NCBI GenBank assembly: GCA_028717885.1
Contig: JAQUMX010000004.1
Coordinates: 2,145-66,144, forward strand
From: Candidatus Omnitrophota bacterium
GTDB taxonomy: Bacteria; Omnitrophota; Gorgyraeia; Gygaellales; Profunditerraquicolaceae
Direction of reading: 5' to 3'
DNA length: 64,000 bases
Shown: positions 1 through 20,949 of the stretch, piece after piece
Layout: every line of letters starts with the position of its first letter
Position numbering within the stretch: position 1 is the stretch's first letter
Notes under the pieces: model-generated
What the model saw: only the letters and a program-made list of their open reading frames with translations
Database searches by the model: none
What the model was told of the DNA's origin: nothing
Program-made: the position numbers and the translations under genes

Positions 1-3000
1 TTCCGCGATAGGCATAAACGCGATATTCGTAGGCGGATAATTCCGTAAGGTCTGTACTGGCGTCCAAATAAGTTTTAACATTCGCTGCGACGGTACCTAT
101 AGACTGAAAAGCAGCGCTACCCTTACGGCGTTCAATCTTAAACCCGTTTTCATCGGCTGAGTTATCCAACCAGCTCAAAGAAACCTGCGCTATTTTAGCA
201 TCAGCAATAGCAGAAAGATTAGAAGGCGCGGCCGGGCCATCCGCAGGCGTAGTTGCATTCACCTCCTGGGAATAAGGCGAATCTCCGTTTGCATTATGGC
301 AACGCAACCTGTAATAATATTTGGTATTGGCAGACAAGCTGCTGTCATTGTATGTTTGCGTTTCTCCGGCTACCGCTATACTCTCAATTTGAGCATATGC
401 GCTTGATTCAGTGCGCCGTTCAATACGTACTTCAGGAACTGAAACGAAGGTATTATTCTTCCAGCTCAGCTTTAAAGCCTGGCTATTGACAGCCGAAAGA
501 TTTAAATTTGTCGGCGCAACCAAAGGAAAAATAACCGAGGCTTCATTTGAATAAGCTGACCTATTTGCAGCATTGTAAGCCAGGACGCGGAATGTACAAG
601 CCACACCCGGCTGATAGCCTGTGGTAATATAGTTAGTTTTATTAGGCTGCGGCCAATTAACCAACTCTATAAACTGCGTAAACCCCGAAGGTTTTTCTTC
701 GATAATAAAACCTGCCTCATTATCCGCATTATCATCCCAAGTTAATCTTACTTCTCCCGGAGTACCGGTAAGCTCGGCCCTGAGATTCGTTGGTGCAGCC
801 AATTGCTTACGCACGTCGAGAGTATAACGTACGGTAGCTACTTCGATTTCCGGCTTTCCGGAAATCGATTCGAATACTTTTCCTGTACCGGCATAAATTC
901 CTGCTGGCCTGCCATTCCAACAAAATGTCTTTACAGTATAGGATGCACCGGCATTGATTCCGCCAGTTGACCATTGAAAACCAAAATCTGTGGCTGTTAC
1001 AGACTGAGCAGCTCCTCCCGGAGGAGTAAAAGTAGCATCATTATTTGCGCTTACCCTAAAACCGGTAAGCGAACCATTGTTGGTAATAATAAACCCGGTT
1101 CCGTAAGTATATAGCGTAGTATCGCTGCCCAACTGCAAAACCTCTGATACCGCGGTAGCTGAGACCTGCAATGCAGACAAAGTATGAATCTGCAGAACAT
1201 TACTATAAGCAGAATCTCCGGATTCGTTAAAAGCTTTGATCCGATAATAATAGGTCATGCCACTGGCTAAGTCTTTGTCTTCATAAGCCGTCGTATTCGC
1301 TCCTAAATTAGCTATCTGGGTAAAACCGTTTGCTTGTGCGGCGCTACGCTCCAGCTTAAACCCGTTTTCATTATTTGCATTATCCGTCCAGCTTAAGTTT
1401 ATCTGGTTCACCAGCGCAGAACTGGCAACAAGATTGCTCGGTGCGGCTGCAGGCAAAGGCATAGTTACAGAAACCTCGTTGGAATAACCGGAATCTCCCG
1501 TATCATTAGTCGCACGGATACGATAATAATATTTTGTGCCAGGAGTTAAATTAGTATCACTGTAAGTTGTTGGCTCAATTTCCGGCATAGCAATCTGGCT
1601 ATACGCGGTGTTATCGGTTTTTCGTTCCAGCTTGAACTTGGTTAAATTATTGGCATTATTCACCCAAGTTAGATTGATTTGCGTGCCGGAAATAACAGTA
1701 GCTGTAAGGTCGCTGGGCGCGGCCAAAATACCTACGTAGGAAACATTAGAATATCCGGAAAAATTTACACCCTTATAGGCGCGGATAACGAAATAATAAG
1801 TCGTGCCCGCGGAAAAATTACTTGTACGGGTAAAAGTAGTGGCGTTGGCCGGGACAGTTTCCACATCATAGAAAGGCCCGGTTGATTTAGTACCCTCTCC
1901 TATCTTAAAACCATCCTCGTTATTAGAATTATCCTGCCAAGTGAATCTTACCTGGTTACTGGAAATTGCGGCTGCAGTTAAGTTTCCCGGTATGGCAGGG
2001 ATTGGTGGATCCATTACTACTGCAATAGTATTAGAAGCAACGGAGTAATTTGTGCCCTTATACGCTTTAACGTTATAGTAATAAGTACTGCCTGGATTAA
2101 AAGCAGTCAAATGCCTAAAACTCGTAGCGTTTGCCGACACTGTTTTTACATGCTCAAATGGGCCATTATTGCTGGTTGCCGTAAAGATTTCAAAGCCATC
2201 TTCATTATTGGAATTATCTATCCAGCTTAAATCGATTTCTCCGCTAGAGATTGCCGCTCCGGAAAGCCCGCTAGGAGCAATCGGCGCACCTTCCTCCACC
2301 ACAATACTAAAATGAATCGTAGCAATATCAATACGCACGTTATCTATATATTCCTGCAATTTATAGGAACCGGCATATCTGCCTGCGGCTTTATTGTTAT
2401 TGATATAACCGCGGACAGTAAGCGTATGCCCTGCGCTTAAACCGCCTGAAGCTTCATAAAATCCGAATCCCTGGATAAGGACGGATTGCGGTTGTCCTCC
2501 AGGAGATGTAAAGGTACCGTCCTGATTAGGCGTTAATAACCAAGTAGTCCCTCCAGTGCTGCAGACATTAGTGATTACAAAAGCGTTTGTATAAGTATAT
2601 TCACCAGGAGGGCCTTTCACTAATCTTAAGGCAACATCAGTTGCGGAAGCGGTGATGGCAAAAGTCCTGGCAGCAATCGGGCCCGCATAATCCGATTCCA
2701 CGCTGGAATTCAAAGCACAGATCTTATAATAATACTTAATGCCAGGATTTAATCCTGTATTGTTGTAGCTTCTGGCAGATGCGTTTGTTACGGTTACGAC
2801 ATCCGGGAAGGTTGATCCGTTAGTGCCGCGGATAACCTTAAAACCGGTTAAGTTTACGCCATTATGCTGCCAAGCCAAGTTAACCTGAGTAGTAGAAATA
2901 GTACTGCCTGTGAAGCTGGTAGGTACTGACGGTATAGGCGCAAATGTAGCGGCACTTGCTTCTACAACATCAGAATCGCCACCGGAATTACTAGCCTTTA

Positions 3001-6000
3001 ACCGATAATAGTAGGTGGTAGCTGCTGTAAGGTTAGCATCGGAATAGCTGGTAGTATTAGGCGGTAAAACTTTCAAAGCCGCGTATGCGCTATCGCTGGA
3101 CCTGCGTTCCAGCTTAAATTCAGATTCATTATCAGCATTATCATGCCAGCTTAAATCGATCTGATGCCCGGAAACAGCCTTGGCGTTAAAGCCACTGGGT
3201 GCTGCCGGCGGATTCATAAATGTAGTTGCACTGGCGATATTGGAATAAGCAGAATTACCCGCAGCATTAATAGCTCTAATCCGGTAATAATAAGTAGTGC
3301 CGCTTGAGGCTTTCTTATCCTCATAAACGGTCGTATTCTGCTCCAAGGAAACTATTTGTACAAAACCTTCGTTTTGCTTAGTGCTGCGCTCCAATTGAAA
3401 AGCAGCTTCATTATCCGAAGCATCTACCCACTCCAAATTTATCTGTGTAGTAGAAGCAGCTATTGCTGCCAGGTCCTTAGGCGCAGCCGGAGGATTGATC
3501 GGCGTCGTAACATTTACTTCCACGCTATCGGAATCACCGCTGGCGTTAGTAGCTCTCAAACGATAATAATACTTAGTGCCTTCACTAAGGTTAACATCAG
3601 AATGATTTTCTGTATTGGCTGCCAAAGTTTCCAGAAGGTTGTACGCTTCCCCTTCTTTCTTACGCTCTAATTTGAACCCGGTTTCATTGACGGCATTATC
3701 TGTCCATAACAAATCAATTTTTTCGGGGTTAACCGCCTGGCCGCTAAAACCTGTCGGAGCAGCGGGAATGCCGGGCTGTGTAGTTGCCTGTGCCCGGTTG
3801 GAAAATTCAGAATCTATCCATTGCTTGTGAGCAGCCACCTTATAATGATAGGTAGTCCCCGCACTAAGGTTAGTCTCCTGATAAGTAATATTATCCGCGC
3901 CTTGCACAGTAGCGATAATCTCATAGTTTCCTCCGGCAGTATCACTGCGGCCAATATGGAACCCTTCGGCAGTAGGCGCATTGTTTTGCCAACTTAAATC
4001 AATTGCGCTGCTGGACACGGTTCTCGCAATAAGATTGCTGGGTGCTGATAACAAGGTAATTGCTCCGGCATTATTAGAGTATTCGGAAAATGTATTACCG
4101 CGGCTGGCGCGCAGGCGGTAATCATAGGATTCGCCTTCGATGAGAGCATCGCTATCATCATAACTTCTTACCTCTGCACCTAAAGTTGCAATCTGGGTAA
4201 ATGTAACGCCTCCGGAAAGTTTACGTTCCAGCTTAAAACCATCGTGATCGCTTTGAACGGCATCATCCCAAGAAAGATTAATCTGCGATACAGATACTCC
4301 TTGCGCCTTGAGGTTAAACGGCGCAGGCGGCGGATTAATTAAAGTCATAGCATTCGCCGGTTCGGAGTAACCTGATTCCGCGGTCGAATTCAAAGCACAA
4401 ATTTTATAGTAATAGGCAGTCCCTTCTCCTAATCCTGTATTATGGTAACTTCTCTCCAGTGCGCTGTTTATTACAAAGGTATCCGGAAAATTTAACCCGT
4501 CCGTACCGCGGATAATTCTAAATCCGGTGACATTGACCCCGCTATGTTCCCAGTTTAAATCGATTTGAGAAGTATTTATCGCTGTAGCCTGTAAATTCTG
4601 CGGCACAGTCGGTACAGGTATAGGAGTCGTGGCATCCGCGGTATTTGAATAAGCAGAATCACCCGCAGAATTTGTAGCCCTGATCCTATAATAATACTTA
4701 GTGCCTTCGCTTAAATTTTCATCGGCAAAACCTGTAGCATTAGCTTGGGCAACTGCGATTTCCGCAAAATCACTTTGCTGTGTTCTACGTTCGATCTTAA
4801 AGCCGGTTTCATTAGAAGAACTATCCTGCCAATCTAAATTAATATGCTCAGAGTCAATGGCTGTGGCGGTTAGATTCTCTGGTGCCAAAGGAAGATTAAC
4901 CGGCGTGACCGCATCTGCGGTGTTCGAATTAGCGGAATCACCGACCAAATTAAATGCGCGCACACGGTAATGATACTTCGTCCCTTCGGCTACGCGCGTA
5001 TCGCTATAAACATATACATTGGCATTGACAATACGGATCTCTTCGAAATTTCCGCCTTCGATTTTACGCTCGATCTTAAAACCGGTTTCGTTATGAGAGT
5101 TATCCTGCCAATTAAGGTTAATTTGCATCAGAGGCAACTGCGCAGCCGAAGCCAAAAGCTGGCTGGGGGCTTCGGGGATTCCGGTAATTGTCGTAGCGCT
5201 GGCAATATTCGTATACGCGGAATTACCGGCATTATTATGAGCACGCACCCTGTAATAATATGTGGTGTCGGCGATCAATCCGGTATTACTGAATGTCTCA
5301 ACCCCTTTTGCAACTGTGCCGATTTGAACAAATTCATCATCAGGATTAATTTTACGTTCGATTTTATACCCGTCTTCATTTATGGAATTACGCACCCAAT
5401 AGAGCCTGATCTCGGTAGAAGATGCCGCAGCCGCAGCTAAAGCTGTAGGCGCAGCAGGAACCCCCTGAGGTGTAGTTGCGCTAGCAGTATTGGAATATTG
5501 CGAATCGCCAATCAGGTTCATTGCCCTGACGCGATAATAATACTTTGTTACCGGAGAAACCTGAGTATCGCTATAGGCATTCACATCCGCATTTACAATT
5601 TTAATTTCCACAAACTGAGAAGCTGACCCGTTTTCCTCAATAGCCCTCTCGATTTTAAAGCCGGTTTCATTATTCGAATTATCTGTCCACTTTAAATCGA
5701 TTTGTATTGGAGACTGCGCGGATGCGCCTAAATTACTGGGAGCTAAAGGAGAAGTCTGTGCCGTAGTAGCAACAGCAATATTAGTAAATGGGGAATTCCC
5801 AGCTGCGTTATAGGCAAAAACTCGGTAATAGTAAGCGGTATCAGCTATTAATTCCTTATTACTATAAGTTTCTACTCCCGCGCCGACTGTGGCAATCAGA
5901 TTGAAATTTCCTTCGGGAGTGAGGCTACGTTCGATCTTAAAGCCGGTTTCATTGGTTGAATTGCGTACCCAATATAGATTAATTTCGCTGGCCGATGCGG

Positions 6001-9000
6001 TAACTGCTGCCAAAGCCGTAGGGGCGTAAGGAATGGCCTGTACGGTAGTAGCGGAAACCTTATTAGAGTATTTCGAGTTCCCGATCAAATTAAATGCCCG
6101 TACCCTGTAATAGTATTTTGTCTGTTCGGATAATTGAGTATCACTATAGGTATTTTCCCCGGCATTAAGGATTCTGATTTCCGTGAAATTCCCTCCTTCA
6201 ATGCGGCGTTCGATTTTAAACCCTGTCTCATTATCGGAATTATCAACCCAGGCTAAATTAATTCCTGAGCTTGAAATTGCTGTAGCAACAAGCCCGCCCG
6301 GAGCCAGGGGGATCGCCGGATTAACGGGAGCTGTCCCGACATTGGTATATTCGGAATTTCCCGCATCGTTAAAAGCGCAAACCCTGTAATAATATGTGTT
6401 ATCCAAATTGATATTGGTATCATCGAAAATATTGGTGTTTGCAAAAGTAGTAGCAATCTGGGCAAAGCCGCTATCCGGATTAAGGCTACGCTCCACCTTG
6501 AACCCATCTTCATTATTGGCATTATCCACCCAGGTAATCCTGATTTGCGTTGCAGAACTAATACTGACGCCCAAAGCAGTCGGCGCAACCGGGGTACTTT
6601 GCGGCGTTTTAGCATTGACAGTATTGGAATAATCGGATTCCCCGACAGCGTTATATGCGCGTACCCGATAATAGAACCTAGTATTCGGGCTGATACCTAT
6701 ATCCTGGAAGTTAACCACATCTGCATTCACGATCGCGATTACCGCAAATTCCTCTCCTTCTAAATGGCGCTCGACCCAGAAACCTGCTTCATTATTAGCA
6801 TTGTCTTTCCAATTTAAATCGACCTCGCTGGCAGAAACTGCCGAAGCGGTAAGGCCGCTTGGCGCACCAGGAGCGGTATTATACGTAGAGGTTCCGTTAA
6901 TATTGCTGTATCCTGAATCCCCCGCGCTATTATAGGCACGCACGCGATAATAATATGCCGTATTAGACGATAAATCCTTGTCATTATAGTTGGAGATATC
7001 CGCCCCTAGCGTAGTAATTTGCTGGAATTCCGTATCGGGCTTGAGGCTGCGTTCGATTTTAAAACCCTCTTCATTATTAGCATTATCCACCCAGGTAAGG
7101 CCGATCTCTGTCGTAGAAACCGGATACACGCCTAAAGCCGTAGGAGCATAAGGCACGATTTGTGGTGTAGTAGCATCGGCAATATTCGAATAAGGCGATT
7201 CCCCTGCTATATTATAAGCACGCACGCGATAATAGAATTTAGCCAAGGGGCTTAATCCGGTATCGCTGTACCTGTTCTGGCCGGCGCCCACGATGTAAAC
7301 TACGTCAAATTCTGTGCCTTCCATCCGGCGCTCAATCATAAAACCGACTTCATTATGTGAATTATCTTCCCAGTTTAAGTCGATTTGCGTAGCTGAAGCA
7401 GCTACTGCGCTAAGGCCGCTCGGCGCATTAGGAATGCCGCTTGAGGTAGTAGCAGAAATAGTATTAGAGTATTCGGAATCCCCTAAATTATTGAACGCCC
7501 TGACACGAAAATAATATTTGGAATCCGGAGTTAAATTTGTATTCACATAATCCATAACATTGGGGGCAACTAGGCCGATCTGAACGAATTCATTATTTTC
7601 TGTACGGCGCTCGATCTTAAATCCATCTTCATCTTCGGAATTATCCACCCAGGTCAAGGAAATCTGCGTCGGAGAATTTACGCTTGCCCCCAAAGCTGTC
7701 GGGCCAGCGGGCACGCCTTTAGGGGTAGTGCCTTCAGCGATATTGGAATCAGCTGATACCGCTGTCTGATTATAAGCACGCACGCGATAGAAATACTTCG
7801 TGCTGGATTTAGCCTGCGCATCTTCAAAAGATAATGTTTTATTATTGACTGTCGCAATAGTTTTAAAATCGGTTTTTGCAGTACGGCGGTCGATTTTATA
7901 CCCAAGGATGTTTGCGGAAAGGGTAGAAACCGCCAAACCTGACCTGATCCTTGCATCACGAACCCCCTGTTTCCAATGCAACGTAATCCGCGAACTGGAA
8001 ACCACGGTGGCAGTAAGATTAGCCGGCGCGGGAATTGCTGAATCAACCGGGGTTTTTACGATTAAAGCATCTGACCTGCATTCCGTGTATAATTCTCCAT
8101 CGGGCGTGGCATAAACCCGGTAATGGTATTCTGTATTGCCTCTCACGGTTTTATCCGTATAGGAAAGTGCTGTTCTGGCTACTTTATCGTCGATAGTGAT
8201 ATACCCGGCATTCGGAGCCCGGGTAAGGTCTTTGCGCCGGATAATAAAATTCTTTAAGAGATCGCTATTAGGACGGTTAAAATCGTAAGCCCAATTGATA
8301 ATAGCTTCGTTTGCCATAATATTCGTGGCATTCAGATTTGTTGCCGGCGGAGGCAAAACTAAAGCTTCTACCGTAACTCTAATACCATTACTCTCTCCGG
8401 CAGCGTTAATTACCTTAACCAGCCCGGTAACAGCACCAGCCGGGACTTTGCAGGTAATCTCATTGTCTTTCCAGGCCACGATTTCACAGGTTGCCTTATT
8501 TTCAAAAATTACCCTGCCATTTTCTTGCATGCTCCCAAAATCCTTACCCTTAATCACCATCTCCGTTTCCGGATTCACGGTTTGCGGTTCAATACTATGC
8601 ACAACCGGGGCAAATGCGACTCTTCCCAGATAAATATTGTCCTTATCTCTCCAGGCAATCCGGTTACCGAAAATCTTCGGGTAGGAATAATTTCCGCTGG
8701 CCACTTTTACTTCCATATCCCTGGCAATGTCATAAAGGTAAATCCCTTCCCCTCTTACTTTATCATTACCCCAGGTAATTTTTCCCTGATCGATATCCAA
8801 GCCGGATGCATTACCTATATCTGCAGCAACCAGAGTTTCTTTTTTCGCAGCTAAATTATAAAGGTAAAGGTCGCTTATAGAATGGCGCAATGAACGGCGG
8901 AAATCTATCCAGATAATATCGTCTCCGGAAATTTGCGGGGAGTCCGAACTGTAGCGGCAGATTTGTTTTTTACTCTGATCGGTAAAATCATACAAATAAA

Positions 9001-10216
9001 TCCCTCTTGAATTAATTTCCCGGGTAAAATTCCCAAATACCAGCTTTTCCCCATCCAAAGCAAAACTATAGGCGTTTGCCCCCAGAATCCTTCCTTTTTT
9101 ATGCGTAGACAGATTTACCGCATTCAAAGATTTACCGTCGTCCCAAACTACCCTGTTTTGGCCGATTTTTGCCCTGAATGCCTTTCCTGCTATATCTATT
9201 CTTTCTGTCAAACCGGTTGAAAGGTCATAAAGAGAAATATTGCCCTTACCCAGCTGGTTCCTTGTAATCCATACCAGCTTATTCTGGCTAAAATCATCTA
9301 TCGGATGATAAGAAAGGATTCTGTTTTTTTGCTTGGTATTTAAGTCATATTTATAGATGCCTGCGCCCCTGCCGATTTCGTTCCAAACCAAGTTGTCGCC
9401 TTCAATAAAAAGAGAGACCAAGAATTCCGGATAAGAAAATGTATTTATCTTCTTTTCCTTAATATCCACCACCGCGAATTCTAATTCTTTTGTTACGGTG
9501 TGAGTGTCGTCTTTGGCAACAAAAATTACCTTGTATGCTCTACCCTTATCTTTTTGAGAAGGATTCCAGGAAACTATCCCCGTTTGCGGGTTAAAACTGA
9601 ACCTGGGAACCTTGTTTGCATCAGGGCAAGAAAGCTTAAGCCTTCCCTGAACAGTAGCCGGGTCATCGGGGTCTTTGACATTAAGGCGGAACTTTAACAT
9701 CCTTCCCGCTGCCGTACCGTGATTATGCTGATTAACGAACTCCGGGGGCTCGCTTACATTATCAATGGTAAAATTTACTGAATCAGTTAACTCTATTTGT
9801 TGCTGATTCCGGACAGCTTTAACCTTTAAAATCAGAATGTATTCGCCATCTTTTATTCCGGCGGTATCCCAGAAACACAGAGAACTATCCCTGATCATGG
9901 TAGTTGCCGGGCGCTCGAGGATTTTTTTCATTTCCAAGGGGTTTGCCGCTGAGGCATAGTAAAGCTGGTATTCTTTGAAGCCAGCGTCTAAATAAGCGCT
10001 GCCCACGACATTGACCTTATTATTCGGCTCTGTATGCAGATATGCCCCTTCCTGGGGGCTGGAAATATACACCATCTGAGGCAACAATGCGGTTTGCCCC
10101 GGCAACCCCGCAGTGCCGTCGGCAAGGGTATTATAGGTAAAGGAAAATGGCGACAACAAAATAACCGAAATAATAAATGCTAATCCGCGTTTACTGTTCA
10201 ATAAATGTTTTTTCAT
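1..10216 (-). CDS. Giant secreted/cell-surface protein, N-terminal 3,405 codons; the 3' end of the gene lies beyond the left window edge. Signal peptide, two Ig/cadherin-like domains, ~7 beta-propeller-like blades, an IPT/TIG domain, then >=27 FN3 modules interrupted by two copies of an unassigned ~125-aa module
   Basis: Absent from the supplied ORF track because no stop codon falls inside the window. Own reverse-complement translation starts at ATG 10216-10214, preceded by GGAGGA (+ strand cctcctc 10221-10227), and reads MKKHLLNSKRGLAFIISVILLSPFSFTYNTLADG... The frame was checked base by base at several points (7441 downward: SGIPNAPSGLSAVA; 1201 downward: NVLQIHTLSALQVS) and read through to position 2. 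The + strand ORFs listed for 253-9697 are short antisense shadows. Confidence 0.9.
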   Translation of the reverse strand, partial: MKKHLLNSKRGLAFIISVILLSPFSFTYNTLADGTAGLPGQTALLPQMVYISSPQEGAYLHTEPNNKVNVVGSAYLDAGFKEYQLYYASAANPLEMKKILERPATTMIRDSSLCFWDTAGIKDGEYILILKVKAVRNQQQIELTDSVNFTIDNVSEPPEFVNQHNHGTAAGRMLKFRLNVKDPDDPATVQGRLKLSCPDANKVPRFSFNPQTGIVSWNPSQKDKGRAYKVIFVAKDDTHTVTKELEFAVVDIKEKKINTFSYPEFLVSLFIEGDNLVWNEIGRGAGIYKYDLNTKQKNRILSYHPIDDFSQNKLVWITRNQLGKGNISLYDLSTGLTERIDIAGKAFRAKIGQNRVVWDDGKSLNAVNLSTHKKGRILGANAYSFALDGEKLVFGNFTREINSRGIYLYDFTDQSKKQICRYSSDSPQISGDDIIWIDFRRSLRHSISDLYLYNLAAKKETLVAADIGNASGLDIDQGKITWGNDKVRGEGIYLYDIARDMEVKVASGNYSYPKIFGNRIAWRDKDNIYLGRVAFAPVVHSIEPQTVNPETEMVIKGKDFGSMQENGRVIFENKATCEIVAWKDNEITCKVPAGAVTGLVKVINAAGESNGIRVTVEALVLPPPATNLNATNIMANEAIINWAYDFNRPNSDLLKNFIIRRKDLTRAPNAGYITIDDKVARTALSYTDKTVRGNTEYHYRVYATPDGELYTECRSDALIVKTPVDSAIPAPANLTATVVSSSRITLHWKQGVRDARIRSGLAVSTLSANILGYKIDRRTAKTDFKTIATVNNKTLSFEDAQAKSSTKYFYRVRAYNQTAVSADSNIAEGTTPKGVPAGPTALGASVNSPTQISLTWVDNSEDEDGFKIERRTENNEFVQIGLVAPNVMDYVNTNLTPDSKYYFRVRAFNNLGDSEYSNTISATTSSGIPNAPSGLSAVAASATQIDLNWEDNSHNEVGFMIERRMEGTEFDVVYIVGAGQNRYSDTGLSPLAKFYYRVRAYNIAGESPYSNIADATTPQIVPYAPTALGVYPVSTTEIGLTWVDNANNEEGFKIERSLKPDTEFQQITTLGADISNYNDKDLSSNTAYYYRVRAYNSAGDSGYSNINGTSTYNTAPGAPSGLTASAVSASEVDLNWKDNANNEAGFWVERHLEGEEFAVIAIVNADVVNFQDIGISPNTRFYYRVRAYNAVGESDYSNTVNAKTPQSTPVAPTALGVSISSATQIRITWVDNANNEDGFKVERSLNPDSGFAQIATTFANTNIFDDTNINLDNTYYYRVCAFNDAGNSEYTNVGTAPVNPAIPLAPGGLVATAISSSGINLAWVDNSDNETGFKIERRIEGGNFTEIRILNAGENTYSDTQLSEQTKYYYRVRAFNLIGNSKYSNKVSATTVQAIPYAPTALAAVTASASEINLYWVRNSTNETGFKIERSLTPEGNFNLIATVGAGVETYSNKELIADTAYYYRVFAYNAAGNSPFTNIAVATTAQTSPLAPSNLGASAQSPIQIDLKWTDNSNNETGFKIERAIEENGSASQFVEIKIVNADVNAYSDTQVSPVTKYYYRVRAMNLIGDSQYSNTASATTPQGVPAAPTALAAAAASSTEIRLYWVRNSINEDGYKIERKINPDDEFVQIGTVAKGVETFSNTGLIADTTYYYRVRAHNNAGNSAYTNIASATTITGIPEAPSQLLASAAQLPLMQINLNWQDNSHNETGFKIERKIEGGNFEEIRIVNANVYVYSDTRVAEGTKYHYRVRAFNLVGDSANSNTADAVTPVNLPLAPENLTATAIDSEHINLDWQDSSSNETGFKIERRTQQSDFAEIAVAQANATGFADENLSEGTKYYYRIRATNSAGDSAYSNTADATTPIPVPTVPQNLQATAINTSQIDLNWEHSGVNVTGFRIIRGTDGLNFPDTFVINSALERSYHNTGLGEGTAYYYKICALNSTAESGYSEPANAMTLINPPPAPFNLKAQGVSVSQINLSWDDAVQSDHDGFKLERKLSGGVTFTQIATLGAEVRSYDDSDALIEGESYDYRLRASRGNTFSEYSNNAGAITLLSAPSNLIARTVSSSAIDLSWQNNAPTAEGFHIGRSDTAGGNYEIIATVQGADNITYQETNLSAGTTYHYKVAAHKQWIDSEFSNRAQATTQPGIPAAPTGFSGQAVNPEKIDLLWTDNAVNETGFKLERKKEGEAYNLLETLAANTENHSDVNLSEGTKYYYRLRATNASGDSDSVEVNVTTPINPPAAPKDLAAIAASTTQINLEWVDASDNEAAFQLERSTKQNEGFVQIVSLEQNTTVYEDKKASSGTTYYYRIRAINAAGNSAYSNIASATTFMNPPAAPSGFNAKAVSGHQIDLSWHDNADNESEFKLERRSSDSAYAALKVLPPNTTSYSDANLTAATTYYYRLKASNSGGDSDVVEASAATFAPIPSVPTSFTGSTISTTQVNLAWQHNGVNLTGFKVIRGTNGSTFPDVVTVTNASARSYNNTGLNPGIKYYYKICALNSSVESDYAGPIAARTFAITASATDVALRLVKGPPGEYTYTNAFVITNVCSTGGTTWLLTPNQDGTFTSPGGQPQSVLIQGFGFYEASGGLSAGHTLTVRGYINNNKAAGRYAGSYKLQEYIDNVRIDIATIHFSIVVEEGAPIAPSGLSGAAISSGEIDLSWIDNSNNEDGFEIFTATSNNGPFEHVKTVSANATSFRHLTAFNPGSTYYYNVKAYKGTNYSVASNTIAVVMDPPIPAIPGNLTAAAISSNQVRFTWQDNSNNEDGFKIGEGTKSTGPFYDVETVPANATTFTRTSNFSAGTTYYFVIRAYKGVNFSGYSNVSYVGILAAPSDLTATVISGTQINLTWVNNANNLTKFKLERKTDNTAYSQIAMPEIEPTTYSDTNLTPGTKYYYRIRATNDTGDSGYSNEVSVTMPLPAAAPSNLVASSALVNQINLSWTDNANNENGFKLERSAAQANGFTQIANLGANTTAYEDKDLASGMTYYYRIKAFNESGDSAYSNVLQIHTLSALQVSATAVSEVLQLGSDTTLYTYGTGFIITNNGSLTGFRVSANNDATFTPPGGAAQSVTATDFGFQWSTGGINAGASYTVKTFCWNGRPAGIYAGTGKVFESISGKPEIEVATVRYTLDVRKQLAAPTNLRAELTGTPGEVRLTWDDNADNEAGFIIEEKPSGFTQFIELVNWPQPNKTNYITTGYQPGVACTFRVLAYNAANRSAYSNEASVIFPLVAPTNLNLSAVNSQALKLSWKNNTFVSVPEVRIERRTESSAYAQIESIAVAGETQTYNDSSLSANTKYYYRLRCHNANGDSPYSQEVNATTPADGPAAPSNLSAIADAKIAQVSLSWLDNSADENGFKIERRKGSAAFQSIGTVAANVKTYLDASTDLTELSAYEYRVYAYRG
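812..1200 (-). other. Non-FN3 insert module X1 (~125 aa) within the FN3 array
   Basis: Translation LQIHTLSALQVSATAVSEVLQLGSDTTLYTYGTGFIITNNGSLTGFRVSANNDATFTPPGGAAQSVTATDFGFQWSTGGINAGASYTVKTFCWNGRPAGIYAGTGKVFESISGKPEIEVATVRYTLDVRKQ. It lacks the FN3 signature and is homologous to X2 (shared TY..F.ITN ... TF..PGG..QSV ... FGF ... GG..AG ... AG.YAG). Confidence 0.6.
2293..2665 (-). other. Non-FN3 insert module X2 (~125 aa), paralogous to X1
   Basis: Translation FAITASATDVALRLVKGPPGEYTYTNAFVITNVCSTGGTTWLLTPNQDGTFTSPGGQPQSVLIQGFGFYEASGGLSAGHTLTVRGYINNNKAAGRYAGSYKLQEYIDNVRIDIATIHFSIVVEEG. Confidence 0.6.
8365..8620 (-). other. IPT/TIG-like Ig domain of the giant protein
   Basis: PVVHSIEPQTVNPETEMVIKGKDFGSMQENGRVIFENKATCEIVAWKDNEITCKVPAGAVTGLVKVINAAGESNGIRVTV. 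This is the classic IPT/TIG pattern (P.I.SI.P......T...I.G..FG......V.F.......I..W....I.C.VP.G...G.V.V). Confidence 0.7.
8625..9440 (-). repeat. About seven ~40-45-aa beta-propeller-like blades in the N-terminal part of the giant protein
   Basis: Seven units of the form (G/Q)(D/N).(L/I/V)(V/I)W ... (G)IY(L/K)YD(L/F/I).(T/A) ... For example GDNLVWNEIGRGAGIYKYDLNT, QNKLVWITRNQLGKGNISLYDLST, GEKLVFGNFTREINSRGIYLYDFTD, GDDIIWIDFRRSLRHSISDLYLYNLAA, QGKITWGNDKVRGEGIYLYDIAR, GNRIAWRDKDNIYLGRV. Confidence 0.6.
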
Positions 10217-10235
10217 TTTTCCTCCTCAGCAATAT

Positions 10236-10258
10236 TAAATAAAAAACCCTCAAAGGGT
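10236..10258 (-). terminator. Short hairpin plus U-run between the riboswitch terminator and the RBS of the giant gene (a second terminator-like or SD-context element)
   Basis: Minus strand ACCCU-UUG-AGGGU followed by UUUUUAUUU. The stem is only 5 bp. Confidence 0.35.
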
Positions 10259-10282
10259 AACTAGCGCCCAATGAGGGGGAGG

Positions 10283-10321: not shown

Positions 10322-10410
10322 TTCCTCTTTGGCAACCCCGCTATCCTTATATTAGGTAAGGACCGGAAGCTTTGCGCCCCAGCATTACTGCTAGTTAGCC
10401 TTTATCAGTA
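10322..10410 (-). promoter_or_regulatory. c-di-GMP-I (GEMM-I) riboswitch aptamer in the 5' leader of the giant surface-protein gene
   Basis: Minus-strand RNA UACUGAUAAAGGCUAACUAGCAGUAAUGCUGGGGCGCAAAGCUUCCGGUCCUUACCUAAUAUAAGGAUAGCGGGGUUGCCAAAGAGGAAU. It carries the conserved GEMM-I blocks as I recall them from the V. cholerae Vc2 aptamer (..GGCAAAC-[hairpin with GNRA loop]-GGGACGCAAAGCCUCCGG ... UAGCGGGGUUACC..). Here these are GGCUAAC, hairpin CUAGCA-GUAA-UGCUGG, GGGGCGCAAAGCUUCCGG, hairpin UCCUUA/UAAGGA, and UAGCGGGGUUGCC. P1 GGC(U)AAC/GUUGCC is complementary. Confidence 0.8.
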
Positions 10411-10452: not shown

Positions 10453-10480
10453 AATATAGCATATTTTTAGGCAATTTCAA
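10453..10480 (-). promoter_or_regulatory. Sigma70-like promoter for the riboswitch and giant gene
   Basis: Minus strand TTGAAA (10480-10475), 16 nt spacer, TATATT (10458-10453), about 40 nt upstream of the aptamer. Confidence 0.5.
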
Positions 10481-10503: not shown

Positions 10504-11025
10504 TTAATCTGCGGCTAGCTGCGAAATGGTAAACGCGCCTTCTAAGAGCTGGGAATTAGGCTTAGTGTTGAGATCCAGCTTCTTAACCTCCAGAAGAGAC
10601 AGGGAATTTTCCAGGCTATAGATGAATTTTATGTAACCATCGAGGCTACCCTCAGCCCTTACATCAATAATAATCTCTTTGTAGAGATCAAGGCTTCTGG
10701 GCGTCTGCGGGCGGATATCGACAATCCGGATATTCGCGTCTTTAGCGAGATTTTCCAATTCGGCTAAGGTATCTACTAAAGTATCTTTTTCCGATAAAGA
10801 TAGCTTTGCGCCCGAAGTGTATTTGTTATTCTGGATCGCCTCTTTCTGGTTCAGCAACCAGAGGTATTTTTTCAACTTTGCCCGGGTGGTAGTAATCTGG
10901 CGGTTTAAAAGCTCGTTTTTCTTAAATACAGGGGCGAGCAAAAAATTAAAAATTAGGCTAAAAATAATTATCGCTACGGTCAAATAAAAGATCAGCTTTT
11001 CTCTTTTGGAAATTATCCTTTGCAT
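10504..11025 (-). CDS. PilO/GspM-like assembly-platform protein
   Basis: 173 aa. N-terminal TM helix, coiled coil and a C-terminal alpha/beta domain. Last gene of the T2SS-like operon, 1 nt after the upstream gene. Confidence 0.7.
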   Translation of the reverse strand: MQRIISKREKLIFYLTVAIIIFSLIFNFLLAPVFKKNELLNRQITTTRAKLKKYLWLLNQKEAIQNNKYTSGAKLSLSEKDTLVDTLAELENLAKDANIRIVDIRPQTPRSLDLYKEIIIDVRAEGSLDGYIKFIYSLENSLSLLEVKKLDLNTKPNSQLLEGAFTISQLAAD

Positions 11026-11026
11026 T

Positions 11027-12460
11027 TTATTTATTTAAGCAGGCAATTTCGAATTCCACGATTTCCCCGGTTTTAGTCTTCCTCTTACTGGCATATCTGA
11101 CTTTAATATTAAAGTTTTTCAGTTCCGGCATTTTCTCCAACGCAGAGACAAAAACAAACACCGGATTCAACTCCTGCGCCTGGCCGCGTAAAATAACTTG
11201 CTTGCCTTCTTCGTAGCTAAAACTGATAAGATACGCAGAACTGGGCAGGGATTTAAAACATCCGGTTAAAAGCTCCAGGCTCGAAGACCTTTTAGCGCTC
11301 TGGCTATCCAATATCTTCGACCTTTTTTCGATTTCTTCTAGCGGCCGGGCATCTTTGCTGACCTTCTCCAATTCTGTTTTTAAACGTTGCAGGTATTTTG
11401 ATTTGTTATCGATGTTCTTGAATGTCGCTACGGACCAAATCAATGCCAAAACTGCGGCAAAAACAAACGTCCGTAAACTTTTTTGGTATACTTTCAGCTG
11501 CTTGCCTTTTTCCCTGACTTCTTCGGGCACAAGGTTAAGGGTATCTTCTATCGTATCCACCCCGAAACCAAAAAGGCTGACAAAAGAACACCCGTAAGAT
11601 TGAGCCTTTTGCGCCAAGGCATCGGAAAGATTAATTTTTTTATAAAAAGGTACCTGCTCAATTGACAAAGGGACCTTTTCTTTTAATAAATTGAAACATT
11701 CTTCCATCATCTTGCCGCTCCCCAAAATCATGATTTTTTGCGGCTGCTCTTTCGAAAATTCTTTTGTATAAGCCTCAAGGGAACGGTTGACTTCCTCGAC
11801 GAAAACAAACTTCCAGTCTTCTCTTGAACGGTTTAGTTTGAAATACCTGCTAAAGGCCATTTTCCTTTTGGAAACTACCACCAGCTCAACCTGATTAAAA
11901 TCGATATCGACGATCATTACCGGAGGATTATCCTGCGGAAAAAGGTAGTTGTATAAATTACATATCCCGTATGATCCAAGATGGATGAAAAATTTTTTTA
12001 TTTTCAGGGCCTTAAATATTTCCAGGTAACGGGAAACAATGTCTTTGTGGACAATAACCAGATTGATCGCTGAATACCCCCCGGTTTGCGTAGAAATCAC
12101 TTGATAGCCGGTAATTAATTCGTCGATCGGATAAGGCAGGTACCTCGGAGCCTGCAAGGAAGCGATCTTTGCTATTTCCTGAGGGGATTGGGCCGGAAGG
12201 ATAGCGTGCCGGCAGGTGGCCTGGTTGCGCGCCAGCGAAAGGATTACCGGGTAATTATTGATCCCGAGCTTTTGGGCAGCCGCTAATAACTTCTGCGTCA
12301 ACTTTTGATTATCGGCGCTTTCTGCCAAAGCTTCAAATTCAAGGCCGAGAAATTCTTTTTTCCCGTCTCTAGAGCATTTTACCGCTTTAAAGGCATTGTC
12401 GGTTATCTGCAGGATAAAAACAGTATTCTTGTTGCCTAGGCTACTCAACAGCTTCTTCAT
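11027..12460 (-). CDS. PilM-PilN fusion / GspL-like assembly-platform protein
   Basis: 477 aa. The ~330-aa N-terminus is actin-like and PilM-type, followed by a TM helix (LRTFVFAAVLALIWSVATF) and a ~120-aa periplasmic PilN/GspL-like domain. Confidence 0.75.
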   Translation of the reverse strand: MKKLLSSLGNKNTVFILQITDNAFKAVKCSRDGKKEFLGLEFEALAESADNQKLTQKLLAAAQKLGINNYPVILSLARNQATCRHAILPAQSPQEIAKIASLQAPRYLPYPIDELITGYQVISTQTGGYSAINLVIVHKDIVSRYLEIFKALKIKKFFIHLGSYGICNLYNYLFPQDNPPVMIVDIDFNQVELVVVSKRKMAFSRYFKLNRSREDWKFVFVEEVNRSLEAYTKEFSKEQPQKIMILGSGKMMEECFNLLKEKVPLSIEQVPFYKKINLSDALAQKAQSYGCSFVSLFGFGVDTIEDTLNLVPEEVREKGKQLKVYQKSLRTFVFAAVLALIWSVATFKNIDNKSKYLQRLKTELEKVSKDARPLEEIEKRSKILDSQSAKRSSSLELLTGCFKSLPSSAYLISFSYEEGKQVILRGQAQELNPVFVFVSALEKMPELKNFNIKVRYASKRKTKTGEIVEFEIACLNK

Positions 12461-12475
12461 TATTTTTTTATGATA

Positions 12476-13474
12476 CTATATTTGCCGCCAAAAGACAATT
12501 TTTTTGTTTTTCCGGTCATAAATAGCACTGATTTTCATCAATGTCCTGCCGGAATTACTGCTCGAATCAATACGAAAAACACTCGATTTAAAAGTAAGGC
12601 TGCCGGCAAGCTTATTTAAAAAATTCCCTTCTGCGGTGCTTAATTGGGCCAGCGTCCTGATATCGCCTTCCCCATTGACCGGTTGGGCATTGCGCAAAGT
12701 AATAATTTTTTCGCTAAGGCTTGCGGCAGCGGAAATTTCTTCTGCATTAGTGGCAAGGGCATTAGCCATGATTGCCAGCGCTTCCGGAGAAACAGTATTT
12801 ACATTTACCGCACTGGATGGGCTATAAACAGTAATGTAATTTTCCAGCTGCTTATAGACATCCCAGGCCTTTTTCTGGTAATCCGCGATTTTTCCTTTGT
12901 AAAAATACTCCAAAAGACTGACTAATTCTGCGCAATTGGAAAACTTATCTTTTTTTAACTGTGGGTAATTTAAAGTTACATCAAGCGCCGGGTCATTACG
13001 CCAGTAAAGAGCGTAATTGACCAATTCGTTTACCCCGCTTTCCACCCCGCCTTTTGCAAATATCCCGGAGAGTACAGCCGGTGAAACAAAGTTAAGATTG
13101 ACCCTACTCTCTTCATCGCTCATGCAATGATAATTATTCCCCTGATCGAGGAAACCAATGGTAAATTTATTTCCTGAGCCCTGGCTTAACTCTATTTCCT
13201 TGAAAATATAATTTTTCGTATCCGGATCTATGCCTATGCTCCAAGGATCAGTCAAACAATCCGAATCCTTTGAAACAGCAGACGCTGCGCTGCTTAAAAA
13301 CAGGATAGCTTTCTCTATTCCTGATTGTGCCAGAAGCTCTGAGGCGAGCCGCTCTTTCTGGGAACGCGCTAATTTCAAATTAATCATGGCGCGGTTTCCT
13401 AAACCGATAACAAAAACTACCAGGATCGCCAATACCCAGAGGCAAATCATCAAAATCGAACCGCGGCGCCTCAT
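12476..13474 (-). CDS. gspK: Minor pseudopilin GspK-like
   Basis: 332 aa. N-terminal hydrophobic helix without Glu5 (MRRRGSILMICLWVLAILVVFVIGL) and a helix-hairpin-helix-like VNVNTVSPEALAIMA motif typical of T2SS protein K. Confidence 0.75.
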   Translation of the reverse strand: MRRRGSILMICLWVLAILVVFVIGLGNRAMINLKLARSQKERLASELLAQSGIEKAILFLSSAASAVSKDSDCLTDPWSIGIDPDTKNYIFKEIELSQGSGNKFTIGFLDQGNNYHCMSDEESRVNLNFVSPAVLSGIFAKGGVESGVNELVNYALYWRNDPALDVTLNYPQLKKDKFSNCAELVSLLEYFYKGKIADYQKKAWDVYKQLENYITVYSPSSAVNVNTVSPEALAIMANALATNAEEISAAASLSEKIITLRNAQPVNGEGDIRTLAQLSTAEGNFLNKLAGSLTFKSSVFRIDSSSNSGRTLMKISAIYDRKNKKIVFWRQI

Positions 13475-14109
13475 GGGTTTCCTCCTAAGGGAATAGCGAT
13501 TGTCCTTAAAAAATCTACGGCAGAAACTTCTTCGCCGTGCCTATCCTTCTCAATCAAGGTAAGTTTTATTCTTACTGCCAAAGGCAATGACTTTTCCTGG
13601 TCCTGGTTCTGCTCCGCCGGCCAGGTATCTTGCCAGGCAATAGGATTATTCGCATCGGAAGACCGATAAGCAAACTCCAGCGAGATGTCTTTTATATCCG
13701 CAGCTAATTCTTGCGGCTCGAGCAGAGAATTTGTTTCGCTCGCCTCCAGCCCACGGTAAAAGTAGCGTTTCAAAACTTTATCCGTAAGTTCATACCGCAC
13801 CCGGCAAGGCAAAATCCGGCTCTCTCCTTTTTCGAAAACCTCGGATACCGAAAAAAATTCTAAACCGGACTGGGCTTTACCGCCTTTAAACCCTGAGCCG
13901 GATTGCATATAACAATAGGAATTCTTTAGATCGCTTTCCATGCGGTTTAAAATTACTTTTGCCGTCTGGTAAATTCCTGCCGCAGATTCCTGTTTTTCGT
14001 AGCTTAGGATCCCGGTCTGCAAGGCAGAATAAACACCCACTACGATCACCGCAGAAAGCGAAACTGCAAGCAATACTTCAATTAAGGTAAAACCTTTTTT
14101 CTTGATCAT
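13471..14109 (-). CDS. gspJ: Minor pseudopilin GspJ-like
   Basis: 212 aa. Prepilin leader MIKKKG|FTLIEVLLAV. Overlaps neighbouring genes by 4 nt. Confidence 0.75.
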   Translation of the reverse strand: MIKKKGFTLIEVLLAVSLSAVIVVGVYSALQTGILSYEKQESAAGIYQTAKVILNRMESDLKNSYCYMQSGSGFKGGKAQSGLEFFSVSEVFEKGESRILPCRVRYELTDKVLKRYFYRGLEASETNSLLEPQELAADIKDISLEFAYRSSDANNPIAWQDTWPAEQNQDQEKSLPLAVRIKLTLIEKDRHGEEVSAVDFLRTIAIPLGGNP

Positions 14110-14495
14110 TGGCTTTGCGCAGGTATGAGGGCTAAGAAATTAAGCATTGATTTCTCCCGGCTATTCTTACTCGGTAAAAACACCTTAAAATCCAACAACA
14201 ATAACCCTTGGTCGGCAGAATCCGATAAAGAACAATTCCAGTCAAACTGACTTTGCTGCAGTGTCGCGGCGCCTTCCTGGAACCTGGTTACGGAGGCAGA
14301 ATTTTTTTGTATTGCGCTAATCTCGAAGATTTTTTCTTCCGCTAAAAATGTAGCGGTAATCATATCCTGTGCCAGCCTTTGCGAAGCAAGTAATGTGACA
14401 AAGGAACGAAAAATAAAAATAATCGCCGTAGAAACTATGGCAATAGTGATCAAAACTTCAATAAGGGTAAACCCTTTATTTGACCTGGATTCCAC
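14106..14495 (-). CDS. gspI: Minor pseudopilin GspI-like
   Basis: 129 aa. Prepilin leader ..SNKG|FTLIEVLITIAIV. Confidence 0.75.
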   Translation of the reverse strand: MESRSNKGFTLIEVLITIAIVSTAIIFIFRSFVTLLASQRLAQDMITATFLAEEKIFEISAIQKNSASVTRFQEGAATLQQSQFDWNCSLSDSADQGLLLLDFKVFLPSKNSREKSMLNFLALIPAQSQ

Positions 14496-14934
14496 CTGAG
14501 GCTCCGCTAAAAATTAATGACAACTTATCCTTGTTCTGGTTTTCAAAAACTAAGCTCGCTTTACCGGTACTGGCATCCGGATAAAAGTAGACTCCTTGGT
14601 CCGCAGCAGGATCAAGCGAAACCTCTACTCCGCGCGGCGCCTGGTAGACCTTGGCAAACCTGCCGCTAAGATTCTTGAATTCCGCATTCTCCAAGGTTAA
14701 AGCCTGTAATTGGCCGCTTTCAATATTGACTGCCAGAAAATAGGTCTTCCCCTGCGAAATAGCGCTATCCTGCAAATAGCGGCTTAAGAAATAAATATCC
14801 TTGGAAAAATTTTGCAGTTCAAAACGGCAAAAGGTACTTTTGAAGCGCGGGAAGGCAACCGCCGAGGCGACCCCGATAATGATAATTACTATAAAAAGCT
14901 CGATAAAAGTAAAGCTTCTAATTTTGCGTATCAT
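14476..14934 (-). CDS. gspH: Minor pseudopilin GspH-like. The track ORF extends to 15039, but the likely start is ATG 14934
   Basis: MIRKIRS|FTFIELFIVIIIIG from ATG 14934. The longer ORF would overlap gspG by 120 nt. Ser rather than Gly sits at position -1 of the prepilin site. Confidence 0.7.
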   Translation of the reverse strand: MIRKIRSFTFIELFIVIIIIGVASAVAFPRFKSTFCRFELQNFSKDIYFLSRYLQDSAISQGKTYFLAVNIESGQLQALTLENAEFKNLSGRFAKVYQAPRGVEVSLDPAADQGVYFYPDASTGKASLVFENQNKDKLSLIFSGASGGIQVK

Positions 14935-15292: not shown

Positions 15293-15314
15293 CGTATCCT
15301 CCTTTAGAGCTAAA

Positions 15315-19250: not shown

Positions 19251-19302
19251 CTTAATTCCTCCTAAAAATATATTTTGGGTGAAAAAATGCGGGCTGGAAT
19301 AA

Positions 19303-20910: not shown

Positions 20911-20939
20911 TTGACACCCGGAAATTTTTATATTACAAT
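20911..20939 (+). promoter_or_regulatory. Near-consensus sigma70 promoter of the GGDEF-like gene
   Basis: TTGACA (20911-20916), 17 nt spacer, TACAAT (20934-20939). The TTG that the ORF track uses as a start codon is the first triplet of the -35 box. Confidence 0.6.
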
Positions 20940-20949
20940 GTCGGTTAAG

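Follow-up and report, generated by a model that had tools for sequence, protein, structure and literature searches.

A giant fibronectin type III gene behind a c-di-GMP-I-type aptamer in a type II secretion gene cluster of an Omnitrophota bacterium

We analysed a stretch of 64,000 nucleotides (nt), hereafter the window, from contig JAQUMX010000004.1 of the Candidatus Omnitrophota bacterium assembly GCA_028717885.1 (positions 2,145 to 66,144 of the forward strand). The window has a GC content of 43% and no Ns. Positions 1-10216, read on the minus strand, are the 5' 10.2 kb of a giant gene and encode residues 1-3405 of a protein with a length of 4,120 amino acids (aa) or more, which consists of a signal peptide, a multidomain head and a long stalk of fibronectin type III (FN3) modules. 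Upstream of the gene lie a leader that carries an aptamer of the c-di-GMP-I type (c-di-GMP being cyclic diguanylate) and, beyond the leader, nine genes of a type II secretion system (T2SS). The parts of the giant gene product, from the N-terminus onwards, are as follows.

10124..10216, minus strand: Sec-type signal peptide, aa 1-31, MKKHLLNSKRGLAFIISVILLSPFSFTYNTLA followed by DG, predicted from sequence features
9752..10075, minus strand: first beta-sandwich (Ig-like), aa ~48-155; strands at 67-151 in the AlphaFold2 (AF2) model
9467..9739, minus strand: second beta-sandwich (He_PIG / cadherin-like putative Ig), aa ~160-250; weak PF05345 match and AF2
8615..9466, minus strand: seven-bladed beta-propeller (TolB / DUF5050-like), aa 251-534; AF2 and Foldseek
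8357..8608, minus strand: IPT/TIG domain, aa 537-620; PF01833
1..8347, minus strand: FN3 stalk, aa 624-3405, 27 modules; Pfam fn3 and a self-trained profile
2279..2668, minus strand: insert 1 of the stalk, aa 2517-2646, non-FN3 all-beta, PapD/ASH-like Ig fold; gap in the FN3 tiling
797..1186, minus strand: insert 2 of the stalk, aa 3011-3140, paralogue of insert 1; gap in the FN3 tiling

The giant reading frame and its product

Reverse-complement translation gives 3,405 codons with zero stops, from the ATG at 10216-10214 to the window edge at position 1, and the nearest in-frame stop upstream (10228) is separated from the ATG by three sense codons. With about 5% of random codons being stops, the chance of such a frame is ~e^-175; 3,405 stop-free codons at this GC content exclude a chance origin. 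A sequence-only reading of the same DNA had pointed to an uninterrupted minus-strand frame from this ATG, behind a ribosome-binding site, in a region that looks non-coding in the accompanying list of open reading frames (ORFs). All three statements hold: the frame is open as described, GAGGAGG stands 4 nt upstream of the ATG, and the list contains short ORFs only for positions 1-10216, because frames that run off the source sequence are omitted from it.

The same reading had expected the real protein to be larger, which is borne out by GenBank, where the giant gene is already annotated and hence not unknown. Record MDD5652813.1 (P0133), a 'fibronectin type III domain-containing protein, partial' of 4,120 aa from a Candidatus Omnitrophica metagenome-assembled genome (MAG), was recovered with 100% identity when the head (aa 41-625) served as query in an exhaustive HMMER search. 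Its residues 1-3405 are exactly the window ORF, to which it adds 715 aa; it has a mass of 448 kDa and a pI of 5.2. P0133 stops inside an FN3 module ('...IRLSWKDSNN') on a contig of 75,661 bp, so that it too is cut by a contig end and the true protein is longer than 4,120 aa. Window bases 1-50 gave no exact DNA match in the genome or metagenome contig collections searched, an exact look-up of P0133 returned no matching contig, and the GspM protein of the window was found elsewhere on a single 2-kb Logan contig. The gspL/gspM genes of the window are also present in the sequencing run SRR22315506.

At the N-terminus, a KK..KR n-region is followed by a hydrophobic core of 16 residues and a TLA-D junction; residues 2-28 are helical in the AF2 model, and the orthologue N-termini are conserved. 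By these features the N-terminus appears to be a standard Sec signal, with cleavage predicted at that junction; its hydrophobic core falls below the 19-residue threshold for a transmembrane (TM) segment. A lipoprotein anchor was ruled out, there being no lipobox Cys, as was prepilin-like processing, which the missing G-F-x-x-x-E motif speaks against; the homologue P0001 also lacks the Gly. P0001, encoded on JAQUNE010000101.1 (locus L002) of the Omnitrophica MAG GCA_028717765.1, is the one close public relative of the head, with 42-47% identity. The same MAG may also encode a third protein with such a head, P0136, which has an adjacent accession number.

The head was modelled with AF2 from 31 sequences, with a mean predicted local distance difference test (pLDDT) score of 76 and values of ~80-95 over aa 251-534. 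The first sandwich, highly conserved relative to P0001, is seen in this model alone, with low pLDDT over aa 24-78, and has no Pfam match. In the second, whose strands the model places at 166-249 (pLDDT 62-89), PF05345 (He_PIG) matches with an E-value of 2.5e-4 and 21.9 bits, below its cut-off of 24. The propeller is better defined: 27 strands, counted by eye, are consistent with seven four-stranded blades, Foldseek finds TolB (7mx5), the seven-bladed 3s25 and others at E ~4e-11, and there are weak profile matches to the beta-propeller repeat TIGR04275 and to DUF5050 (E 1.7e-5). The TIG domain is matched by PF01833 over aa 537-603 with 31.4 bits against a cut-off of 20.9, and with 40.3 bits on the isolated segment. 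Together these Ig-like, He_PIG-like, propeller and TIG domains are likely to be the binding module of the protein. Named homologues of the head are all from Candidatus Omnitrophica/Omnitrophota, and no relatives were found in the GTDB representative genomes. The same cassette lies internally (for example at aa 500-1,200) in ~200 other multidomain proteins with 30-37% identity (205 matches at E <1e-30); it is therefore a reusable unit that is not specific to the fibre.

Pfam fn3 (PF00041) matches the stalk in 23 stretches, with E 1.8e-185 and 602 bits against a cut-off of 25. A self-trained profile resolves 27 modules in the window, the last one truncated, and 35 in P0133, with a period of ~93 aa. 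The modules share a mean pairwise identity of 38% and the bacterial signature W-x-D-N-S-x-N-E-x-G-F-x-I-E-R, and Tandem Repeats Finder detects no DNA tandem repeats in the giant gene; because the modules have diverged and DNA repeats are absent, we take the array to be old. The sequence-only reading is thus matched in its signal peptide, its two Ig/cadherin-like sandwiches (the first with partly low confidence), its approximately seven blades, its IPT/TIG domain and its stalk of at least 27 FN3 modules. It had overlooked the two 130-aa inserts, which are 39% identical to each other and for which neither a Pfam family nor, by protein search, a homologue was found. The AF2 model of the insert is an all-beta sandwich (pLDDT 76.7) whose best match in the PDB is the ASH/PapD-like 6fvi (E 2.4e-5, template modelling score 0.61). 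The DUF1573 protein that heads the T2SS operon, ASH/PapD-like Ig as well, has the same predicted fold.

There is no membrane segment in P0133: nowhere does a 19-residue window exceed a Kyte-Doolittle value of 1.6. For the C-terminus we turned to orthologues. On L002, the last 623 residues of an FN3 protein are followed by a 77-aa ORF and then by P0001, and this first gene is colinear with P0133 aa 3475-4092 (66.5% identity). It and the first gene of the metagenome contig L006 both end in '...EASVTTP' and a stop right after an FN3 module, without PEP-CTERM, type IX secretion C-terminal domain, LPXTG, RTX or barrel domain. P0133 reaches beyond the stop of the L002 orthologue, into at least one further two-module unit, and this near-repeated unit probably caused the assembly to break at the contig end. 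The orthologue ends thus argue against a C-terminal sorting domain in a protein whose own end lies beyond P0133. The view that the C-terminus is not visible still stands, the GenBank extension being cut in mid-module, but the special functional or anchoring end that it allowed for is improbable: the window protein, too, probably ends in plain FN3 modules, with no hidden functional C-terminus. In both L002 (1-5686) and L006 (1-1289) a small ORF and, behind it, a second, paralogous head-TIG-FN3 gene come after the giant gene, so that the giants stand in tandem.

The leader of the giant gene

The interval between gspM, the last gene of the T2SS cluster, and the ATG contains the following elements.

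10453..10480, minus strand: sigma-70-like promoter, TTGAAA, 16-nt spacer, TG-n-TATATT (10/12 in a consensus scan)
10327..10409, minus strand: c-di-GMP-I-type aptamer (Rfam clan CL00126), best match RF03167 with 62.3 bits
10286..10319, minus strand: terminator-like hairpin T1, AAACCCUAAAA-AAGCC-UUUUAGGGUUU and a U run, stem 10319-10293
10241..10277, minus strand: terminator-like hairpin T2, CCCUCA...UGAGGG and U6, stem 10277-10247
10221..10227, minus strand: Shine-Dalgarno (SD) sequence GAGGAGG

The promoter-like site lies between gspM and the aptamer, in a region that is nearly invariant in four orthologous leaders. The aptamer, which ends 110 nt upstream of the ATG, matches RF03167 (the 'GGC' variant) at 62.3 bits against a gathering threshold of 59 (E 2.5e-12), and the c-di-GMP riboswitch that the sequence-only reading had placed before the gene is therefore well founded. 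Orthologous aptamers, scoring 60.5-61.2 bits, precede the giant-gene orthologues in L003, L004, L005 and L008, that is, every orthologue whose leader is on its contig, and in P3 a compensatory change from GGUC/GAU to GGCC/GGU keeps the pairing. The label RF03167 is tempered by two observations. At the variant column, where the RF03167 consensus reads CGC-G-AA, the window RNA and its relatives read CGC-A-AA; and the related aptamer of L010 prefers RF01051 (62.2 bits, gathering 35) over RF03167 (54.3 bits). In the cmscan alignment the motifs AAAGGC, CGC-A-AAG and UUGCC can be picked out by eye, and all three canonical ligand contacts, which we take to be G20, A47 and C92 in Vc2 numbering, seem to be present. 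Judged by these motifs, c-di-GMP is the likely ligand.

An intrinsic terminator follows directly after the aptamer in all seven related leaders (7/7). T1 begins 8 nt past the aptamer with no overlap and is conserved in L003, L004, L005 and L008; T2 is conserved in L003, L005 and L008 with a different stem sequence. The SD region GGAGGAAAAA is exactly complementary over 10 nt to UUUUUCCUCC at ~10272-10281, an anti-SD that is paired with it in the minimum free energy (MFE) fold (z = -4.0) and that occurs in this exact form in the window and L004 only. Unconstrained MFE and partition-function folding place aptamer and terminator together in most leaders. Complementarities between aptamer and terminator exist (AAAGGCU/AGCCUUU in the window, CAAGGC/GCCUUG in L010), and a helix that reads GAGGAA/UUCCUC in one case and GAGAAAU/AUUUCUU in another is suggestive, the cases being too few to call covariation. 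Because T1 lies 8 nt past the aptamer and both coexist in the MFE fold, the ligand cannot directly exclude T1. This layout is more typical of OFF switches, and since T1 stands clear of the aptamer and both can form together, we slightly favour ligand-promoted termination. In the leader of L010, a ~40-nt direct repeat GCTAGGTAAAGCAGCACCGGCGCAATTCATCATAAGCGC is present in two copies at ~12125-12230, between the terminator and a small ORF.

The secretion cluster, its variable interval and the neighbouring genes

Upstream of the leader, the following genes lie on the same strand.

10504..11025, minus strand: gspM / PilO-like; PF10741 T2SSM_b, with the GspM model NF040576 below threshold
11027..12460, minus strand: gspL-like PilM-PilN fusion; PF11104 and PF05137
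12476-13474, minus strand: gspK-like; pseudopilin profile match
13471-14109, minus strand: gspJ; pseudopilin profile match
14106-14495, minus strand: gspI; pseudopilin profile match
14476 to ~14934, minus strand: gspH-like; pseudopilin profile match
14918-15292, minus strand: major pseudopilin gspG; GspG 102.5 bits against a cut-off of 88.85
15315-16523, minus strand: gspF; profile match
16524-18245, minus strand: gspE ATPase; GspE 617.8 against 630
18288-19695, minus strand: DUF1573 (ASH/PapD-like Ig) protein and M48 peptidase with an EF-hand match, at the head of the T2SS operon

Nine T2SS genes thus stand in the canonical order E-F-G-H-I-J-K-L-M (10504-18245), which bears out the earlier placement of the giant gene directly downstream of a T2SS or type IV pilus-like operon. 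Of the nine, GspG is the one that exceeds its NCBIfam equivalog cut-off; E, F and I narrowly miss theirs, and the rest are clear best matches. The N-terminal part of GspE (aa 10-61) carries an MshE-type c-di-GMP-binding motif (NF053729, 52.8 bits against 38). All homologues of the gspL-like protein that have a name (96/96) are from Omnitrophica/Omnitrophota.

We compared 12 Omnitrophota loci, of which L007-L015 were found through gspL homologues (35-77% identity to the window protein) and L003, L004 and L005 through the head. The order in these relatives is gspE-F-G-H-I-J-K-L-M, a variable interval, a MerR gene at some loci, an ATPase_2-type AAA gene, a ~200-aa weak T2SSC match and the secretin gene; by analogy, MerR, AAA, gspC and gspD are predicted to lie past the left edge of the window. 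The interval is empty in L013, L014 and L015, holds a 190-aa gene alone in L012, and in L009 is filled by toxin-antitoxin and phage-like genes. L010 has a c-di-GMP-I aptamer and a 100-aa gene. L011 has two aptamers. The terminator of one (12146-12272) overlaps its 3' part in an ON-like arrangement, and the genes behind it encode a 320-aa protein and an FN3 protein of 354 aa; the other (14581-14661), with a separate terminator, stands in front of a PilZ-fusion gene and a CARDB gene of 679 aa. In L003/L005, L008 and the window, the interval holds an aptamer, with or without a small ORF, and the giant gene; L004 also has aptamer and giant gene, on a contig that stops short of the gsp genes. Wherever secreted or surface-type cargo lies between gspM and gspC/gspD in the 12 loci, the aptamer is present, and none was found in the loci without such cargo. 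This recurrent combination indicates that the giant gene occupies a recurrent, riboswitch-gated slot in the T2SS cluster. The orthologues come from independent metagenomes and have the same architecture and leader, with 57-94% identity in the head. One MAG, GCA_028717765.1, has two paralogous T2SS clusters (L007 and L008).

Directly downstream of the aptamer, most related loci have a small ORF of 76-100 aa with the motif RVITxLNRxExDFLDxxxKD..FS.G, at these positions:

L003, 3000-3230
L005, 7397-7624
L002, 1888-2121
L006, 604-804
L008, ~5299-5439
L010, 12238-12540
L011, 14732-15367, as the N-terminal 80 aa

It measures 76-77 aa in L002, L003 and L005 and 100 aa in L010, and in L011 it is the N-terminal domain of a PilZ protein, a fusion that ties it to c-di-GMP signalling. 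No Pfam family matches it. It is absent from the window (by tblastn) and from L004, the closest relative of the window; in these two, nothing separates the giant gene from its riboswitch leader.

Further genes of the window belong to c-di-GMP signalling and the cell envelope.

20911-22254, plus strand: HAMP-GGDEF protein with the variant motif GGDDF
28066-28461, minus strand: small PilZ protein, N-x-S-x-x-G present, RRxxR missing
57890-59293, minus strand: HAMP-HD-GYP protein, HD and GYP motifs intact
~24800-54540, minus strand: exopolysaccharide (EPS) / O-antigen-like cluster of ~30 kb

The EPS cluster encodes a Wza-like exporter, a BBP2 porin, a priming transferase, many glycosyltransferases of families 2 and 4 (GT2 and GT4), a UDP-glucose dehydrogenase, an epimerase, a radical-SAM protein, two Wzy_C proteins, a Wzm/Wzt ABC transporter and a Wzc-like GNVR/AAA_31 protein. 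With the c-di-GMP genes it suggests that the locus is part of a c-di-GMP-governed surface programme. Within the cluster, five tandem paralogous GT2 genes of ~275-289 aa each, with overlapping starts and stops (39791-43912, minus strand), look like a local gene amplification. A gene for a PagL-like lipid A deacylase (55143-55775, minus strand) points to a diderm envelope with lipopolysaccharide.

Proposed role, alternatives and known systems

The reading that we consider the best, and moderately probable, is that the giant gene product is an extracellular fibre or adhesin exported by Sec and the T2SS under the control of c-di-GMP. A cleavable Sec signal peptide would bring the protein to the periplasm. 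The mature product would be soluble, acidic and rod-like, with a mass of at least 450 kDa, and would lie outside the cell, the N-terminal binding head being carried by a stalk of at least 35 FN3 modules and two PapD/ASH-like inserts; at an assumed ~3.5 nm per module, the stalk would be ~130-150 nm long. The flanking T2SS would be the most likely route across the outer membrane because the gene sits in the variable cargo slot of its cluster, a dependence that gene position alone suggests. Once outside, the protein may act as a long fibre or adhesin that attaches to surfaces, matrix, or host or prey cells. Transcription would start at the gene's own promoter and be gated by the aptamer and the two intrinsic terminators, and this gating would set production by the cellular c-di-GMP level. 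The MshE-type motif of GspE and the HAMP-GGDEF, PilZ and HD-GYP proteins form a coherent c-di-GMP setting. A regulated giant adhesin or fibre had also been the conclusion of the sequence-only reading, and it has been strengthened by the conservation of the aptamer and the gspL/gspM neighbours at L003, L005 and L008, the aptamer being conserved at L004 as well.

Omnitrophota (OP3) are ultra-small and mostly uncultured bacteria that are believed to live on other cells or to prey on them. We put forward, tentatively and as the less probable extension of this proposal, that the interval from gspM to MerR/AAA/gspC/gspD may be a dedicated c-di-GMP-riboswitch-gated cargo slot, through which the messenger would pick the T2SS substrate, and that the FN3 fibre may be the filament with which an ultra-small episymbiont captures its host or prey. 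Such a filament would possibly be made at low c-di-GMP, while the cell is still searching.

Several points weigh against export by the T2SS and control by c-di-GMP as proposed. No PF00263 secretin, T2SSC or peptidase A24 match occurs in the ~70 minus-strand ORFs scanned between 10.5 and 64 kb, and the positions of secretin, gspC and prepilin peptidase are predicted from relatives only. The well-known large T2SS substrates, PulA and SslE among them, stay well below 200 kDa; to our knowledge a 450-kDa FN3 fibre would exceed any described T2SS substrate by far, and a folded rod longer than the width of the periplasm is mechanistically awkward for a T2SS. No means is evident by which an anchorless protein would be retained on the cell, and propeller, Ig and TIG folds are generic and do not indicate the ligand of the head. 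As for the riboswitch, we know of no settled ligand for the 'GGC' variant RF03167, and no clear two-state switch emerges from in-silico equilibrium folding. If the switch is OFF at high c-di-GMP, the simple scheme in which high c-di-GMP turns the adhesin on would not hold, and such a switch would fit poorly with a c-di-GMP-binding GspE.

The lack of an anchor is one of the reasons to consider that the protein is not released at all. A cell-bound fibre without an anchor needs a protein-protein attachment, and a propeller head docked on the GspK-I-J tip, in the manner of PilY1, would display the FN3 stalk outward as a pseudopilus- or pilus-tip adhesin. The gene lies directly after the minor pseudopilin and assembly genes, and the Sec signal peptide and the seven-bladed propeller are as in PilY1. 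However, the Pfam profile of the PilY1/PilC family (PF05567, Neisseria_PilC) matches neither the whole protein nor the isolated propeller, which is TolB/DUF5050-like; the propeller is N-terminal, the stalk has no distal binding domain and its free end is plain FN3; the cassette occurs internally in many unrelated proteins; and the machinery, whose gspG exceeds its NCBIfam cut-off, is Gsp-like and not that of a type IVa pilus, with no retraction ATPase seen. We consider a tip adhesin unlikely. Equally unlikely in our view is a c-di-GMP-controlled matrix or coat scaffold that would work as partner of the EPS cluster at 24-54 kb, its head binding the cell's own polysaccharide. That ~30-kb cluster of Wza, Wzc, Wzy, Wzm/Wzt and glycosyltransferase genes, with a PilZ gene among them, is immediately upstream, GGDEF and HD-GYP proteins are encoded in the window, and propellers and Ig/He_PIG modules often bind carbohydrates. 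What is kept at the orthologous loci, however, is the T2SS neighbourhood (on short contigs from which the EPS region is out of reach), different sugar-related genes lie near the T2SS in L009 and L012, and no lectin or carbohydrate-binding module family of Pfam matches the head.

The neighbourhood might also be without functional meaning, the giant gene being a mobile or fast-evolving insertion after gspM whose product leaves by another export route or by lysis. The unrelated toxin-antitoxin and phage-like genes in the slot of L009 resemble an integration hot spot, and mobile elements are reported to flank many long-protein loci (bioRxiv 10.64898/2026.06.07.730766). Secreted or surface-like cargo (FN3, CARDB, the giant gene) nevertheless recurs in the slot across lineages, always behind an aptamer, and a Sec signal peptide is the sole secretion signal of the giant protein, so that we hold this explanation to be quite improbable. 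Still less can be said for an artefact, that is, a misassembled or decaying repeat region in place of a functional gene. The contig does break within a near-repeated two-module unit at the 3' end, but 3,405 (and, in P0133, 4,120) stop-free codons, modules at ~38% identity and the absence of DNA tandem repeats speak against it, and the open frame together with conserved orthologues (head identity, architecture and leader as given above) effectively refutes it. Export as a c-di-GMP-controlled fibre or adhesin through Sec and the T2SS remains the reading that we prefer.

Giant or long proteins of Omnitrophota flanked by T2SS or pilus genes and PilZ have been read as attachment or predation devices (West-Roberts et al. 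2023, bioRxiv 10.1101/2023.11.21.568195; Nielsen & Lui 2026, bioRxiv 10.64898/2026.06.07.730766). The window protein resembles these in being repeat-rich, with attachment-type domains and old, diverged repeats, beside gspE/F and pseudopilin genes and with PilZ nearby. It differs in its known length of at least 4,120 aa, under the minimum sizes set in the two studies (10,000 aa or 25 kb), and in having a pure FN3 stalk and a propeller head without TM regions, SecA-DEAD, dockerin or TSP3 (thrombospondin type 3) repeats. The class described in the abstract of West-Roberts et al. comprises proteins of tens of thousands of aa with numerous transmembrane regions and, in most of them, a divergent SecA-DEAD domain; measured against that text, the window protein falls outside their 'giant proteins' by its size, by having no TM-like segment and by having no SecA-DEAD match. 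A riboswitch is mentioned in neither paper, nor does the term 'c-di-GMP' appear in that of West-Roberts et al., and a literature search on Omnitrophota and c-di-GMP riboswitches gave unrelated papers only.

Outside the phylum, fibrillar adhesins with a stalk of Ig-like repeats and a binding head are known from type I secretion systems (T1SS), as in the RTX proteins LapA, SiiE and MpIBP, and from Gram-positive bacteria (SasG/Aap). The giant protein has in common with them dozens of ~90-aa beta-sandwich beads that project a non-repeat binding region, in an acidic and Cys-poor chain; unlike them, it lacks RTX repeats, a C-terminal T1SS signal, a retention module at the N-terminus and LPXTG, and would presumably be exported by Sec and the T2SS. 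Surface genes under c-di-GMP riboswitches include gbpA behind Vc1 in Vibrio cholerae and, in Clostridioides difficile, pilA1 and CD2831 behind class-II aptamers. As there, a c-di-GMP aptamer with a terminator-type platform lies in the 5' leader of a gene for an attachment protein, whereas here the aptamer is of class I, is followed by two tandem terminators and an exact 10-nt anti-SD, and stands inside a T2SS cluster of an Omnitrophota bacterium. PilY1/PilC pilus-tip adhesins share the Sec signal peptide, the seven-bladed propeller and the position beside minor (pseudo)pilin genes; in contrast to them, the window protein lacks PF05567, has its propeller at the N-terminus with a stalk of ~3,500 aa after it, and is associated with Gsp-type machinery.

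Altogether, the giant gene exemplifies well a type of gene that earlier work has described from Omnitrophota. What the comparison adds, modestly, is the riboswitch-gated cargo slot, unreported as far as the searched literature shows. The gene also carries a lesson for annotation, as lists of ORFs that drop edge-truncated frames conceal the largest genes. The very long proteins of Omnitrophota are a recognised puzzle with regard to their export, their regulation and their binding targets. The present locus offers a compact and tractable example, which combines a Sec signal and a purely extracellular architecture with a defined head, a position in a T2SS cluster and a riboswitch whose ligand can be tested, and the cargo-slot pattern turns the statement that giant genes lie near secretion systems into a hypothesis on regulation and export that can be tested in vitro.

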